Below are positions 38,405-45,092 of a stretch of DNA of 64,000 bases, piece after piece. The position numbers and the translations under genes are program-made. Where the stretch lies: the NCBI GenBank assembly GCA_023140385.1, contig JAGLLT010000021.1, forward strand, positions 1,068 through 65,067, written 5' to 3'. The notes under the pieces are model-generated. The model was not told the DNA's origin and searched no databases. It worked only from the letters and a program-made list of their open reading frames with translations. Position 1 is the first letter of the stretch. Each line of letters opens with the position of its first letter. Source of the stretch: Candidatus Omnitrophota bacterium. Its GTDB lineage: Bacteria; Omnitrophota; Gorgyraeia; JAGLLT01.

Positions 38405-38460
38405 CTTCTTCCTCCCTATCTTTACTGTTGTATTGTAAAAAATATCTGAATTTAATCACC

Positions 38461-38700
38461 AATAACCAAGTTATACCCTAATCCTATGCTTCGCTTCTTA
38501 TATCAAGACGTTCGCATTCGCTCACTCTAAGGATTAAGACGCTCACTTTGTTCGCTCTAAGGATTAAGTTTTTTTCACTTAATCCCCGCTCTTACTCAAT
38601 CCTATTTTTTAATCCTTTAACTTAATCCTTAGAGCTCACCAACAATTTGTCGATGGTGAGCGTCTTAATCCTTAATCCTGTTTTTTGCGTCTTGGTTATT
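38461..38700 (+). repeat. intergenic repeat family 2, copy 1 (bounded by 10-bp inverted repeat AATAACCAAG / CTTGGTTATT)
   Basis: ~100-bp core CAAGACGTTCGCATTCGCTCACTCTAAGGATTAAGACGCTCACTTTGTTC..CACTTAATCCCCGC shared with 61897-61998; multiple GGATTAAG/CTTAATCC units. Confidence 0.8.
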
Positions 38701-39836: not shown

Positions 39837-40027
39837 AACCGCAACTATATCACATATAAGGGGATAAGTAAAGTTAAAATTAGAATTGCATCAAGCCTTT
39901 ATCGTCTTATACCTTCTTACTTTTCATAATTATGACACAAGTGTATCATAAAAGAAACAGACGTTAAGTCCCACCGCATTAAATAACCCCCAACTCCTTT
40001 AATTCCCAAATCATGAGATATACCCAT

Positions 40028-40630
40028 TTAATTGTTTTGTCCAGATAACCTTTGCCCTTTTGATTCCATTTTTATCAAGAAATTAGTATTGTGTCCCCCG
40101 ATTAGCATTGGCTTGTTATCTTTTTTTATTTCGTCTTGCCATTTATTTACATTTGAAATCAATCCATCAACTAAATCACATAATTCTTTTAGATATTTCT
40201 CATTAAGTGGGTACAGTGTTTCTTTTGAAATGGTACTTATGCCATGGATTTTGTTTGTTTCGGTGTTCACCTGATAAGCCAATTCATTTTGTTCTTGAAA
40301 TGCATGCGCATAAATTTTAGTTGCTTGATTTATAATGTATTCATGCAATTTTACGTATTTTTTGGGAATATGTTTTTTGTTTAATCCTGCGTTGCGAGTT
40401 GTAGAGTTGAAACATCTTCTATATTTAATAAAAATCGCTGTATATAGCGCATCAATAACCACAACCTTTGTTAAATTTTTGGGGAAAATTTCATCCTTAA
40501 TTTTTTTTAATAGAATTTGGCAAATTTTTTTTATTCTTTCAAGATCTCTATTTTGTATAGATGTCAAACCAGATAATCTTAATAATTTCTTGTTGGTGGT
40601 TTTTATTTTATTTAACTTAAAATTTGCCAT
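40028..40630 (-). CDS. hypothetical protein in low-GC island
   Basis: 200 aa with no recognisable motif; AT-rich codon usage unlike the flanking genes. Confidence 0.4.
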   Translation of the reverse strand: MANFKLNKIKTTNKKLLRLSGLTSIQNRDLERIKKICQILLKKIKDEIFPKNLTKVVVIDALYTAIFIKYRRCFNSTTRNAGLNKKHIPKKYVKLHEYIINQATKIYAHAFQEQNELAYQVNTETNKIHGISTISKETLYPLNEKYLKELCDLVDGLISNVNKWQDEIKKDNKPMLIGGHNTNFLIKMESKGQRLSGQNN

Positions 40631-40790
40631 AGTTTAAATTAATTATTTAAAGATAACGTTTGAACTCACTGGTTTTTACGGAGCACAGCGGAGTAAAAAT
40701 CCAGTGCAGGGTCAAAGCAGTGCCTGACCCCGTTGTTTAATAACACGCGCAGCGAAAAAAGTCAGGTTGAGCAAATTGTTATGTGTTCTT

Positions 40791-41165
40791 TTATTTCTTT
40801 TTCAATTTGTGTGAAAACAATGTGCTTGATAGGTGATGTATTTTCTTCCTTTTTTGCCCTATGTCAGATCTTTTTATTTTTTTATAATAGTCGTAATTAC
40901 ATTTGTTGCCATAAATACGAAACTTTGTAACCAAAAATCCACCTATAATCAAAACAATTCCGATTTTCCAGTTTATGAAAAGATAAATAACTCCTCCAAT
41001 CATTAGATATCCAGTTATTACACTTAAAAGAGGATTTGGTCCCATAGGAATTACATGAACTATTGAAGCAATAAGAAATAATGCTATTGCTAATTTCCAG
41101 TTGAAAAAAATAAAAATTATAGTAAGTACAAAGAGCAACGATTTAATTATATTAAGAATTTTCAT
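40791..41165 (-). CDS. small 4-TM membrane protein with basic C-terminal tail (island gene)
   Basis: Four hydrophobic helices followed by KKIKRSDIGQKRKK...KLKKK. Confidence 0.45.
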   Translation of the reverse strand: MKILNIIKSLLFVLTIIFIFFNWKLAIALFLIASIVHVIPMGPNPLLSVITGYLMIGGVIYLFINWKIGIVLIIGGFLVTKFRIYGNKCNYDYYKKIKRSDIGQKRKKIHHLSSTLFSHKLKKK

Positions 41166-41255
41166 AGATTTATATTATATCTCAGATAACATTTGAGCTT
41201 ACCTACTGGGTTGAGCTCCTTTTGTGCGCTCCCTCCAGATAGATGAAGCGATTTG

Positions 41256-41597
41256 TTATGATATTTTGTCCTTATATTTCTCATAATCTGAGAGATATGC
41301 TCTCTCAGATTCATCTATAAACTCTTGTTTTCTGTCTCTGAGATCTCGAAGTTTTCCATGTATGCTCTTGTAGACAATCTGATGAGCTTGGTTTTTAATT
41401 TTCTCTTCAACATATTCATCAAAATCTACCTCTTTGCTAAGTATCGAATTTACAAGATTTAATAAATCCTCTTTAGTGATCCTGTCAATTGGTTGAAATT
41501 CACCATCCTTATCAAGAAAATGACCAAGATCATTATCGATCTTCAATAGCTTCATATGCTTGCCTCCTGCTTTCATAGGCTTCCAATCCCGCCTCAA
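41256..41597 (-). CDS. hypothetical small acidic/helical protein overlapping the 3' end of the PHP-ATPase gene
   Basis: Likely start is an internal Met (MKLLKIDND..., ~41555); charged and helical with no motif. Confidence 0.4.
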   Translation of the reverse strand: MRRDWKPMKAGGKHMKLLKIDNDLGHFLDKDGEFQPIDRITKEDLLNLVNSILSKEVDFDEYVEEKIKNQAHQIVYKSIHGKLRDLRDRKQEFIDESERAYLSDYEKYKDKIS

Positions 41598-43560
41598 GTG
41601 AATTCAACATAATTTTATGATTTTTGATAGATCTCCCGTCGATGGATTTGAGTATCTTATCGGTTGGATGTCCAGAGTAAATCCTATAAATTGTCTTCCC
41701 ACTCTCTACTTCCTTGTTGGCATACAGCAGGTAATCTGCACTAACAGAGGCCCCCACCGTGCTATTGTGTGTAACCACAACCACAGGCATTGATTCTGAT
41801 ATTTCCCTTAGAATTTGATTCACATCACTTTTTAGAAACATATTGTCGAATGAGGATTCTGGCTCATCAATGAGTAAAATATCAAAGTTTTGGGCATCTT
41901 TGATTTCCTGTAGCAATCGAAATTCGGACCGTTCTCCTCCTGAAACGTCAACGCCATCAGAATTTAGAATTTTGTATTCAATTTTTGTAAACAGTCTGTA
42001 TAGTTCTGATCGTACTAAGTGGTTATCAGCCATTAGAGCTTGTAGGTACCGGTATGGGGCTCCGTATTCTTTCAGAGCTTCCTTAAATGATGTGTTTACT
42101 CCACTTGCAGATTTAATCTCTCCAGCCTTAGTGAATGCACCTTTGCTAGCAACAACAGAAAATCCTTGAACATTCTCCTCAAATATTATAGACTCTTTCC
42201 GCAAGCTGTTCACAATATCTTCGAATCGTTTCACCTTTCTGTCTTCCATGCACACTCGATACAAATCAACATCATTAACCTGAATGGCAGATGTGCGCGT
42301 TTTTAGACTATCTTTTGTATCTTTGATAATCCCATTGAGAAACCGCCTTTTTTTATTTTCCAGCGCCTTACTCCAGAGCAATTCAATTAATTCACACGCA
42401 AGTTTTTTCAAAGACTTTATATCAACATGTTTCTCGATAATATTCCTGTATTCGATGTTCTCAATAACTTGACGAACTGATGAAATGAGTTCTTTTAGAA
42501 CTATGTCATCCCTTACAGGAAATGCTGTCTCATCAAAGAGGGCAACTTTTGAATATGCATCACGCCTATATGCTTCTTCTGCTGACTTAAGGAGGGAAGA
42601 AATATAATTCTCAACATCCCGCTTGTTACGTTCTAAGTCAACATTCATCACATCATCTAAGACTGACTTGAATGCAGATAGGTAACGATCAAGAAAAGTA
42701 CTACGTTTTTTTTGAACTTCGTTTTTAAACTCACGATCATACGCTGCCTCGTCTCGTTGAACCAATGAAAACTGTCTGATATATTTTACCCCTTCATATA
42801 CATCATTTATCTTATTCAAAGTATATGTTTTACCAGTTGATCTATCACCAAGGAGGACATTCAATCCTGTGGACATCTTTTGTCCGTCATCAAAAATCTG
42901 AAATAAGGAATTACCGTCATCCTCTGACAAAAAAACTTTACCCTTGTCTCTAAGGCAGGCCCTAATGGCACTAAAGCTCAACTCGCCGCAATCCAGAAAA
43001 GTCTGTCTTGTAGGCAAACTACATAGGCTATCACTTGCCCTAACATCACTAAATAGAACAGGGGTCAGTTTTGTTTTATCTTTTATGACACGGATAAATT
43101 TCTTTGCGCTATCGACCTCACCTGCTGTGATATAGGAAGAGAGTTCCTCTAGTGTTTTACCCCGAATGGAGGGCTTTTTGTCATGATGGGGGATAATTAA
43201 ATAACTGTTTAGGTTTCCGTAAATATTTTTCAGATTATCTACTGTAATGCTATCATCAACATGAGATATTCTTTTTAAGACCTCATCAGACCTAGATTCA
43301 AAGTCTTCAATGTCTGATCCGTCGCTCAAAAGTAATATATGGCAATTATCCAGGTTTATCTCAATTCCTGGGAATACTGTAATGGGTAGTGATTCATTTA
43401 TAGCCCTGAATTGTTCCGCGTTAAATTTATTATGATTAGTTATCGCAATAGCATCCAGATTAGCTTCTGTTACGTATCTTTTTAGACTATCCATGCAGAA
43501 AGTAAAGTCGCTATCACTGATGGTTTTAATGGTGTGAATGTGTAGATCTATTTTTTTCAT
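41533..43560 (-). CDS. PHP-domain phosphoesterase fused to SMC/Rad50-like ABC ATPase (Ppl/OLD-class defence-like)
   Basis: N-terminal IDLHIHT, ITNHN, IIPHHD (PHP); then Walker A LLGDRSTGKTYTL, a helical insert, signature VSGGERSEF, Walker B ILLIDEPESSFD and H-loop VVVTHN. Confidence 0.7.
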   Translation of the reverse strand: MKKIDLHIHTIKTISDSDFTFCMDSLKRYVTEANLDAIAITNHNKFNAEQFRAINESLPITVFPGIEINLDNCHILLLSDGSDIEDFESRSDEVLKRISHVDDSITVDNLKNIYGNLNSYLIIPHHDKKPSIRGKTLEELSSYITAGEVDSAKKFIRVIKDKTKLTPVLFSDVRASDSLCSLPTRQTFLDCGELSFSAIRACLRDKGKVFLSEDDGNSLFQIFDDGQKMSTGLNVLLGDRSTGKTYTLNKINDVYEGVKYIRQFSLVQRDEAAYDREFKNEVQKKRSTFLDRYLSAFKSVLDDVMNVDLERNKRDVENYISSLLKSAEEAYRRDAYSKVALFDETAFPVRDDIVLKELISSVRQVIENIEYRNIIEKHVDIKSLKKLACELIELLWSKALENKKRRFLNGIIKDTKDSLKTRTSAIQVNDVDLYRVCMEDRKVKRFEDIVNSLRKESIIFEENVQGFSVVASKGAFTKAGEIKSASGVNTSFKEALKEYGAPYRYLQALMADNHLVRSELYRLFTKIEYKILNSDGVDVSGGERSEFRLLQEIKDAQNFDILLIDEPESSFDNMFLKSDVNQILREISESMPVVVVTHNSTVGASVSADYLLYANKEVESGKTIYRIYSGHPTDKILKSIDGRSIKNHKIMLNSLEAGLEAYESRRQAYEAIEDR

Positions 43561-43892
43561 TGTACACCCCGATCAATACTGGCATTATTTACATCATAAC
43601 AATTAATAGAAGTAATACATAAATTTATGGTTTTTTCATGAAAATCTCTTTTTATTGATATTTATTATATATCTAGGCTATTTGTGCGTCAAGGTGAAAA
43701 ATTATGGGTAGTTACGACAAAAGATAAATTGATAATATTTTGTAATTGCTCTATGATATTAGAAAATATGTATTGCGTATAATATGGAGTTTTTGCGGAA
43801 AAGGAATATATCTATGCGGCAAAGTTAAGAAGGCTTCAAAAATGAAATAATCACTTTTAATTAATTCTATGAAGGGCGGCTAAGGGCGGTTT

Positions 43893-45092
43893 CTAATCAT
43901 TATCCGCGGGGAGTTCTTCGGGTGGGATGGGTTCTTCTTCTTTTGGCGGGAGGGGGAGGTTGCGGGCGGTTCTTAGGAGGTCGATTTTATTTAGCGGTTT
44001 TTCAAGTTGTCTTTTTCTGGTGGTGATCAGACTTTCATACTCTTTTTGGGCGGCTCCAATTCGTTCACCTACCCTTTTTAACTTTTCCACAAAGGAGCCC
44101 CACTCTTTCTTGAATCTGCCTAAGAGTGACAATATCTCATTGGATGTTTTTTCTAAAGTGAAGTTGTCGACCGCCTGGCGGATGACTGCCAAAATGGCAA
44201 AAAGTGTGATGGGTGAGCAGATAATCACCTTCTCCTTAATAGCATTGTCAAATATGGCGCTGTCCTGTTCATGAATAAAGGCGTATATTTGTTCATTGGG
44301 GATAAAAAGAAGGACATAATCAACGGTATTTTGTTCAGGGTTAATGTATTCACGGGTAGTTATTTCTTTAATTCTTAATTTGACATCAGCCATAAATTTA
44401 TCGCGAAAACTTTTCTTTTCCACTTTAGAATCGCATTCAACATACCTGGCATAGTTATCCAGCGGAAACTTTACATCCATATTCAGCTTTAACTCTCGGG
44501 GCAGTAAAAAGGTAAAGTCAGGGCGCGAGCCGGCTTCTTCGATTGTTTTTTGTTTTAAGTAGTTTACGTTTTCGATTAAACCCGTCAGCCGCAGGACGTC
44601 TTCAGCCATTCGTTCTCCCCACTGCCCTCTTGATTTGGTGCTGGCCAGGGCTTCACGCAGGCTGTTTGTTGTCTGGGCAAGAATTTGGTTTTGCTCATTA
44701 ACCGTTTTAAGCTGATTGGAAAGCTCGCCGAATTTCTGAGTTCTGTCTTTTTCCAAATCCTTCATCAAGACAGAAACGCTTTCGAGTTCGCCGGACATAC
44801 GGTTCAACTGCTGGTCTATGAGCTCTTTCTTTGAGATTAACTCTCTGGCGGTTAGCTCTCTTTCGGATTCAAGCTTAGACTTGGCTAATTTAAAAAACTC
44901 ATCAGTTGTTCGTGAAAGTGCGTCTGACGACAAGTCGCTAAAAGTGTTTTTTAACTTTTCAATAAGCAGGTCGGTTTCCTGTTTATGCTGCGCCTGACTT
45001 TTTTTGTAAAGGTGGCGCGTTATGACAGCGGTTAAAGCAGCCCCCAGAAAAAATCCTGTTAGCGTAGAGATTAAAATAACGGTTATATCCAC
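43893..45092 (-). CDS. rmuC: DNA recombination protein RmuC
   Basis: N-terminal TM, long coiled coil and conserved RmuC C-terminal domain; GTG start. Confidence 0.8.
   Translation of the reverse strand: MDITVILISTLTGFFLGAALTAVITRHLYKKSQAQHKQETDLLIEKLKNTFSDLSSDALSRTTDEFFKLAKSKLESERELTARELISKKELIDQQLNRMSGELESVSVLMKDLEKDRTQKFGELSNQLKTVNEQNQILAQTTNSLREALASTKSRGQWGERMAEDVLRLTGLIENVNYLKQKTIEEAGSRPDFTFLLPRELKLNMDVKFPLDNYARYVECDSKVEKKSFRDKFMADVKLRIKEITTREYINPEQNTVDYVLLFIPNEQIYAFIHEQDSAIFDNAIKEKVIICSPITLFAILAVIRQAVDNFTLEKTSNEILSLLGRFKKEWGSFVEKLKRVGERIGAAQKEYESLITTRKRQLEKPLNKIDLLRTARNLPLPPKEEEPIPPEELPADND

Follow-up and report, generated by a model that had tools for sequence, protein, structure and literature searches.

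We analyzed a 64,000-nucleotide (nt) stretch of an Omnitrophota metagenome-assembled genome (MAG), hereafter the window, and in it an AT-rich islet of about 4 kb (39840-43900) that carries four genes, A to D. By full-length profile match, genes A and B are an already catalogued phage defence candidate, PDC-M49, and not a new kind of system. The explanation that we favor, and consider probable, is that this segment is a mosaic accessory islet lying between native rmuC and LPG_synthase_TM genes, that its core is a self-contained two-gene PDC-M49 acting by the mechanism proposed below, and that C and D are separate acquisitions at the same spot. A preliminary description, drawn up from the sequence alone, had put the four genes forward as a candidate novel defence locus; we no longer regard the locus as novel, because A and B match existing PADLOC models over their full length.

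Gene A (41533..43560; all genes of the islet lie on the minus strand) encodes a protein of 675 amino acids (aa), which matched the PADLOC model PDC-M49A (PDLC04680) with E=7.7e-297 and 984 bits, residues 1-673 aligning to positions 1-673 of the 674 in the profile. Gene B (41256..41555) encodes an acidic protein of 99 aa, which matched PDC-M49B (PDLC04682) with E=8.8e-36, residues 15-109 of its longest open reading frame (ORF) covering positions 1-95 of 97. PDC-M49 is one of the 145 "phage defence candidates" of PADLOC-DB v2, which were derived from genes embedded within BREX, DISARM, and type I restriction-modification (RM) loci and which their source labels as untested (Payne et al. 2024, bioRxiv 10.1101/2024.01.29.577857). 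It is defined there, in the supplement, by the cassettes FAM_00021>>FAM_01695 or FAM_00021>>FAM_02682. Every testable feature of PDC-M49 was present in the window copy: a full-length A, an adjacent and co-oriented B, and a two-gene cassette. Gene order, orientation, and two-gene make-up were the same as in the family, with no structural difference; the window copy is distinguished by sitting in an Omnitrophota MAG, beside two unrelated small genes. Standard PADLOC annotation would label the locus PDC-M49.

Protein A is 100% identical to a deposited Candidatus Omnitrophica MAG protein (NCBI) and has more than 1,800 homologues; those with protein identities of 64-85% come from MAGs labelled Syntrophales, Planctomycetia, Gammaproteobacteria (Candidatus Kentrum), and others. 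Its N-terminal part, approximately residues 1-215 (42916..43560), was assigned as a PHP phosphoesterase domain by invariant residues, Pfam, NCBIfam, and Foldseek. The Pfam PHP family PF02811, which the preliminary description had suggested as a probe, did match A (E=7.4e-4, 20.3 bits), but below the gathering score of 26.4; the same match is precomputed for the A homologues P0021, P0036, and P0100, and the NCBIfam CehA/McbA domain matched A at 2e-6. In an alignment of 25 homologues, the PHP residues H7, H9, D16, H43, E67, H74, H125, and D172 were invariant. We modeled A by AlphaFold2 from a 25-sequence alignment; the mean pLDDT score (predicted local distance difference test) was 49.6, and the PHP part alone was usable, with pLDDT of 70-90 across residues 10-125. 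When this confident part was submitted to Foldseek, it retrieved PHP phosphoesterases, namely 3o0f/3e0f, 7ug9 (the PHP domain of RNase AM), and 2yb1, with E values of 4e-5 to 1.6e-4 and a probability of 1.0. Both the PHP fold and its metal-binding His/Asp/Glu motifs are present in A. Searched by sequence against the Protein Data Bank (PDB), the PHP domain alone gave no match, and A gave only generic ABC-transporter matches at the signature/Walker B region.

The rest of A carries the complete motif set of the ABC ATPase superfamily (Walker A, Q-loop, signature, Walker B, D-loop, and H-loop). In the Walker A motif or P-loop (G238-D-R-S-T-G-K-T245; 42826..42849, minus strand), G238, S241, G243, K244, and T245 were invariant in the 25 homologues, as were, in order, Q263, S540-G542, D565-E566, S569-D572, and H598. 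No stretch of A is more conserved than that from the ABC signature (V539-SGGERSE) to Walker B and the D-loop (ILLIDEPESSFD, reaching residue 568 and further; 41857..41946, minus strand), with conservation of 0.85-0.88 across residues 526-575, and PstB-type matches span residues 532-623. Walker A and the signature are separated by about 290 residues, mostly helical. Pfam AAA_15, AAA_21, and SMC_N, also suggested in the preliminary description, found no match in A, and the label "SMC-like" used there is a tentative structural prediction, backed by weak Foldseek matches of the low-confidence model to JetC and Rad50. All catalytic residues of both the PHP and the ABC parts are kept, supporting the prediction that A is catalytically competent.

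The longest ORF of gene B is 41256..41597. We placed the true start at the ATG at 41555, giving 99 aa, because the gene callers of sister contigs use it, because an AGGAGG Shine-Dalgarno sequence lies 7 nt upstream, and because the match to the PADLOC model starts only at residue 15 of the longer frame. The Shine-Dalgarno sequence falls inside gene A, and the two genes share 23 nt (41533..41555, minus strand) at the 3′ end of A and the 5′ end of B. The earlier account of a 675-aa PHP::ABC ATPase overlapped by a small partner is thus borne out by the motifs, the Foldseek matches, and the overlap. B of the window has a net charge of -5 and an isoelectric point (pI) of 5.2, and its family is likewise acidic (median net charge -6, pI ~4.9), with the conserved motifs MKLLKI, PIDxITKEDLL, NQAHQIIYKSI, and FIDESE. 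A single-sequence model of B showed three short strands plus a helix of 50 residues and had no meaningful match among PDB structures (best E 2.7).

To survey the pair, we took one genome per species, which yielded 341 loci, and used the best 80; these span Omnitrophota, Desulfobacterota, Planctomycetota, Proteobacteria, Bacteroidota, Fibrobacterota, Firmicutes, and one archaeal MAG. B lay directly downstream of A in 77 of the 80, and in the remaining three the contig breaks off within A, so that the pair was intact in all 77 informative loci. The overlap was 20, 23, or 26 nt, with the ATG of B over the stop of A, in 75/75 loci, which is consistent with translational coupling. Pairwise distances of A and of B were strongly correlated (Mantel r=0.86, reached by 0 of 999 permutations). 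In addition, a 771-aa protein, P0082, encoded on a 12.8-kb ENA contig, is a head-to-tail fusion in which residues 1-673 correspond to A and 672-767 to B; it is either a Rosetta-stone fusion or a single frameshifted assembly, and it supports a physical association of the two proteins. Judged from these comparisons, A and B are an obligate, co-evolving pair.

The islet that houses the pair is compositionally foreign. Its GC content of 0.340 is the minimum among all 4,061-nt windows of the stretch, and those not overlapping it have 0.411±0.013, with a minimum of 0.378; the AT-richness reported in the preliminary description is therefore real. The range of 30-33% GC given there applies to the B-D half (0.308) and not to gene A (0.377). 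A sliding window showed a GC of about 0.30 over 40000-41500 and 0.37-0.39 over gene A, with 0.40-0.45 in the flanks. GC at third codon positions (GC3) was 0.339 in A, 0.28 in B, 0.24 in C, and 0.259 in D, the lowest values in the window, where the 61 ORFs that reach 100 aa or more have 0.429±0.056. The deviation is strongest in C and D and mild in A. Both spacers that had been described as AT-rich are so: that between rmuC and gene A (43561..43892, minus strand) has a GC of 0.286 and bears the best promoter-like site of the region, a strong TTGACG-17-TATAAT at 43692..43664 ahead of gene A, and that between D and the LPG_synthase_TM (UPF0104) gene (39837..40027, minus strand), which forms the right-hand edge of the islet, has 0.335.

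The A/B pair has crossed phyla recently. Window A and the copy in a Deltaproteobacteria MAG (L001:149-2176) share 85% nucleotide identity, with a synonymous divergence (dS) of 0.54 and a ratio of nonsynonymous to synonymous divergence (dN/dS) of 0.16, indicating recent inter-phylum transfer together with purifying selection. The closest A relatives (83-85% identity) have neighbors that differ from those in the window; the copy at 83% identity is flanked by NucS-like, HEPN_LA2681, and QueC/DpnII-like genes and by a type I RM system. Across the 80 loci, the gene family most often found beside A/B was common to at most 4, and there was no conserved third gene. Immediate neighbors included integrases, recombinases, YgjP-like peptidases, RiboL-PSP HEPN, BrxL, type I specificity subunits, Shedu SduA, RT/DRT (reverse transcriptases), Cas1, AbiLi, and MzaA. 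By these similarities, the horizontal spread of A is unusually recent and broad. Given contexts so rich in defence genes and mobile elements, a defence-type role is our best guess for A/B, and the same guess in the preliminary description was a reasonable one, since the surroundings of the relatives hold type I RM, BrxL, Shedu, DRT, HEPN, and Abi genes as well as integrases and recombinases.

For such a role we infer a mechanism by analogy with ABC-ATPase defences and PHP nucleases. A would dimerize via ATP-sandwiched ABC heads, and head engagement would control the fused PHP domain, the putative effector, acting as a metal-dependent nuclease or phosphoesterase. The helical stretch that separates the signature from Walker A might serve as a sensor or as a dimerization arm. 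Translational coupling would supply B at a fixed ratio to A, and B would bind A, with the probable contact close to the C-terminus of A, and act as regulator or adaptor, either silencing the nuclease or conferring specificity on it. Infection or foreign DNA would be the trigger, leading to ATP-dependent activation and to nucleic-acid degradation, with a direct or an abortive outcome.

Several points weigh against this explanation. The anti-phage role of PDC-M49 is that of a candidate only, as its source lists the family; the name was found in no main text of the literature searched, and a literature search on PHP, ABC ATPase, and defence yielded no relevant study. When phage genomes were searched for A homologues, none was found, and some neighbors of A/B are plain housekeeping genes (Sod and Aldedh). 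Outside the PHP domain the model of A is of low quality, and both the SMC/Rad50-like shape and the part assigned to the helical stretch are tentative predictions. The PHP domain may act on DNA, on RNA, or on a nucleotide. For B, neither structure nor sequence searches gave a relative, and the role given to it is a guess. Between B, C, and D we looked for a terminator-like site and found none, and all four genes may be co-transcribed. Finally, no islet-free relative was found, so that the insertion is read from composition and inter-phylum similarity only.

Homologues were also found on 64 plasmids, of which 48 are conjugative or mobilizable; 45 of the 64 come from Enterococcus, and all the listed ones are from E. 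faecalis. In pTEF2 (L174, NZ_CP046110.1 27573-29898), the pair lies between two serine-recombinase genes and neighbors a Mu-transposase/AAA pair, an Abi gene, RelE/ParE, and DUF4062; this copy looks like the cargo of a transposable or invertible cassette. In pTEF2-like pheromone plasmids, the PDC-M49 homologue is annotated as 'histidinol-phosphatase' plus 'hypothetical protein'. Taken with the inter-phylum similarity, the plasmid copies indicate that the A/B module moves horizontally across phyla and onto plasmids.

This plasmid carriage, together with the recombinase, transposase, and RelE/ParE toxin genes beside the pTEF2 copy, would also suit a role for A/B as an addiction or toxin-antitoxin-like stabilizer, with A a toxic nuclease-ATPase and B a labile acidic antidote, acting through post-segregational killing and not in phage defence. 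The small size and acidity of B, its fixed ratio to A, its co-evolution with A, and the wholly variable genomic context fit such a role as well. However, B is encoded downstream of A, and the P0082 fusion is hard to square with a labile antidote; the neighbors are mostly defence genes, as defence islands predict; and the family was recovered through its embedding in BREX, DISARM, or type I RM loci. We therefore consider an addiction role unlikely, noting that toxin-antitoxin-like and abortive-defence roles can coexist.

Immediately upstream of A, on the same strand, the window encodes an RmuC protein (43893-45092; PF02646, E=3.8e-70). Coiled-coil nuclease-type proteins of the RmuC/DUF2130 kind were immediate same-strand neighbors of A/B in 6 of the 77 loci, in different phyla: five were DUF2130 (PF09903) and one RmuC (PF02646), at L012:4081-5283, L018:3230-4513, L051:10417-11826, L064:10445-11836, L027:6279-7688, and L007:10510-12228. 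DUF2130 has no PADLOC model. These proteins may be an optional third component, independent defence-island genes, or chance neighbors. Their recurrence raises a reading of the whole islet as a mini-island of three systems, in which PDC-M49 would be an immune module of undescribed mechanism, a PHP nuclease gated by the ABC ATPase and B, that recurrently recruits RmuC/DUF2130, and in which C and D would be Abi-like single-gene defences. We judge this combination improbable.

The neighboring RmuC, and the RmuC/DUF2130 neighbors in 6 of 77 other loci, also raise the prospect that A/B is a housekeeping repair or recombination factor of the SbcCD/Rad50-Mre11 type that works with the adjacent RmuC. 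Like SbcCD, Mre11-Rad50, and JetC of Wadjet, A combines a metal-dependent phosphoesterase with an ABC ATPase whose Walker A and signature are set apart by a helical stretch, in keeping with the weak Foldseek matches to Rad50 and JetC. However, this stretch is only about 290 aa long in A, and no calcineurin-fold Mre11/SbcD partner, kleisin, or KITE subunit accompanies it; family models for SbcC, SbcD, Mre11, and Rad50 in Pfam and NCBIfam gave no match, so that A falls outside the housekeeping repair families. The distribution of the pair is patchy and includes plasmids, its neighborhood is variable, and the inter-phylum dS speaks for recent transfer. Moreover, the composition of A/B is foreign, whereas that of RmuC is native (GC3 0.465), and among 80 metagenome RmuC relatives at up to 70% identity, none had A/B beside it and no synteny was shared. 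We thus regard a repair role as very unlikely.

Genes C and D bear on the reading of the islet as a mosaic. C (40791..41165) encodes a 124-aa protein that has four hydrophobic segments and a basic tail, in which 13 of 41 residues are lysine or arginine. In the preliminary description it was a protein of four transmembrane (TM) segments with a polybasic tail; both features are seen in C, but the tail is not conserved in its family. This family consists of membrane proteins of 96-123 aa, with 33 matches at 54-94% identity and a conserved KFRIYGNKCNYDYY motif. C contains an internal duplication, two TM hairpins within which an FNWK/INWK motif is repeated, visible in the DNA as a repeat (40957-40988 and 41086-41117) 129 nt apart. 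The C homologues adjoin genes for IS110 transposase, integrase, HepT/MNT, HicA, Fic, or resolvase, and never A/B, so that the combination of a PHP-ATPase with a 4-TM protein, presented earlier as new, comes down to coincidental co-location. By these contexts, the membrane-protein family of C is small and separately mobile, and C is not a PDC-M49 component. The family was found in metagenomes and MAGs, one of the latter labelled Patescibacteria. Six contigs have a conserved 93-aa ORF ahead of the C homologue; we considered this ORF as a counterpart of B or D and rejected it, as it is unrelated to either.

D (40028..40630) encodes a 200-aa protein of a very rare family. It had one relative in a collection of 5.8 billion proteins and 14 in an exhaustive search of 1.84 billion representatives, with the common motif YRRCF...LH.Y...AN..YAH. 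D weakly matched the phage family phrog_8440 (E=4.9e-8), and neither D nor the 14 family members received an assignment from Pfam, PADLOC, NCBIfam, or PDB. Its relatives adjoin DUF2164 or integrase genes (one of them a phage-type integrase) and are without A/B; on this evidence D, too, is not a PDC-M49 component. Two distant members carry R-H-x-Y-x-A-H at the motif; an Rx4-6H HEPN-like reading is a visual impression from these two, and we do not claim it.

No C or D homologue was found within ±8 kb of A/B in the 80 loci (77 informative), and C and D relatives occur in other contexts; rather than one cassette, the islet is thus a patchwork of three or more units that are independently mobile. 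The lower GC3 of C and D (0.24-0.26) relative to A (0.34) likewise suggests separate acquisition. The preliminary description had itself named a lack of conservation of the small ORFs beside PHP-ATPase homologues as grounds for giving up the four-gene cassette, and with 0/77 we have given it up. That A, B, C, and D nevertheless form one new four-component defence system, with the 4-TM and 200-aa proteins as effectors or sensors, is hardly credible: all four genes are on one strand, with low GC throughout, gaps of only 90 and 160 nt, no terminator-like site between them, and an order kept in all sister contigs of the same population, but against this stand the absence of C, D, or any other conserved third gene from the 77 loci, the different neighbors of the closest A relatives, the life of C and D relatives elsewhere without A/B, and the lower GC3 of C and D.

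The mosaic reading leaves A/B as the unit to be compared with known systems. Ppl is a single-gene anti-phage system of PHP plus ATPase (Millman et al. 2022) with a proposed nuclease action (PMC11482910) and is counted among the ABC-ATPase defences by Payne et al. (10.1101/2024.01.29.577857). Like Ppl, A holds PHP and ATPase in one protein; however, Ppl acts alone, whereas PDC-M49 has the obligate partner B. A PADLOC scan at E<=1 returned no Ppl model and only PDC-M49A, AriA, HEC-01A, HEC-02A, and PDC-M56A, and we treat Ppl as an architectural analogue only.

The nearest named family to A is TrlF (NCBIfam NF045780; 74.8 bits, E=6e-21, residues 3-451 on positions 7-543 of a 944-position profile, thus covering PHP and the first half of the ATPase). 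TrlF is the PHP-ATPase encoded in trlG-trlF-trlR, the temperature-restriction locus of Photorhabdus (bioRxiv 10.1101/2020.06.02.129163). Both are PHP-ATPases in small operons, that of TrlF having growth-restricting activity. However, the score of A falls far short of the family cut-off of 350 bits, which places A outside TrlF; TrlF is 944 aa long, and its partners, TrlG (Alba_2 plus HATPase_c_4) and the 79-aa TrlR, are not B-like. In a Pfam scan, Alba_2 and HATPase_c_4 were absent from B, C, and D.

OLD, Gabija GajA, PARIS AriA/AriB, Septu, and HEC-01 to HEC-04 resemble PDC-M49 in coupling an ABC ATPase to a nuclease effector. A has weak local hidden Markov model matches of 50-90 residues to AriA (residues 557-613), HEC-01A, and HEC-02A at the Walker motifs. 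By contrast with these systems, the nuclease of A is a predicted, fused PHP domain and not TOPRIM, HNH, NERD, or PIN, and its partner is a 99-aa acidic protein without a recognizable enzymatic domain. No TOPRIM match was found in A to D with Pfam, PADLOC, or NCBIfam, so that the pair does not belong to the OLD/Gabija/PARIS class. The likeness to Ppl, OLD, Gabija, and PARIS drawn in the preliminary description thus survives as an analogy and not as family membership.

The locus is a clean example of a catalogued candidate, and the pairing, co-evolution, fusion, motifs, transfer, and contexts together make the family a reasonable target for validation. Comparison across loci defines the minimal unit as A plus B, without C and D. 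If PDC-M49 were validated, it would add to the ABC-ATPase defences an effector class of PHP nuclease with a small acidic regulator.

The RmuC and LPG_synthase_TM (UPF0104) genes that flank the islet are of native composition. Contigs with an identical RmuC or A all belonged to the same population and all carried the full islet; beyond that population, the searches with RmuC and A turned up no close relative. Around the islet, we found no insertion signatures in the form of att-like flanking repeats, a tRNA, or an integrase. Rfam, run over the searched stretch, gave as its sole match a sub-threshold mir-1502 (E 0.18; 38550-38638), which is surely spurious; it lies outside the islet, in a non-coding 290-nt gap (38405-38695) between the genes for a type II dehydroquinase and a Trm112p-like protein.

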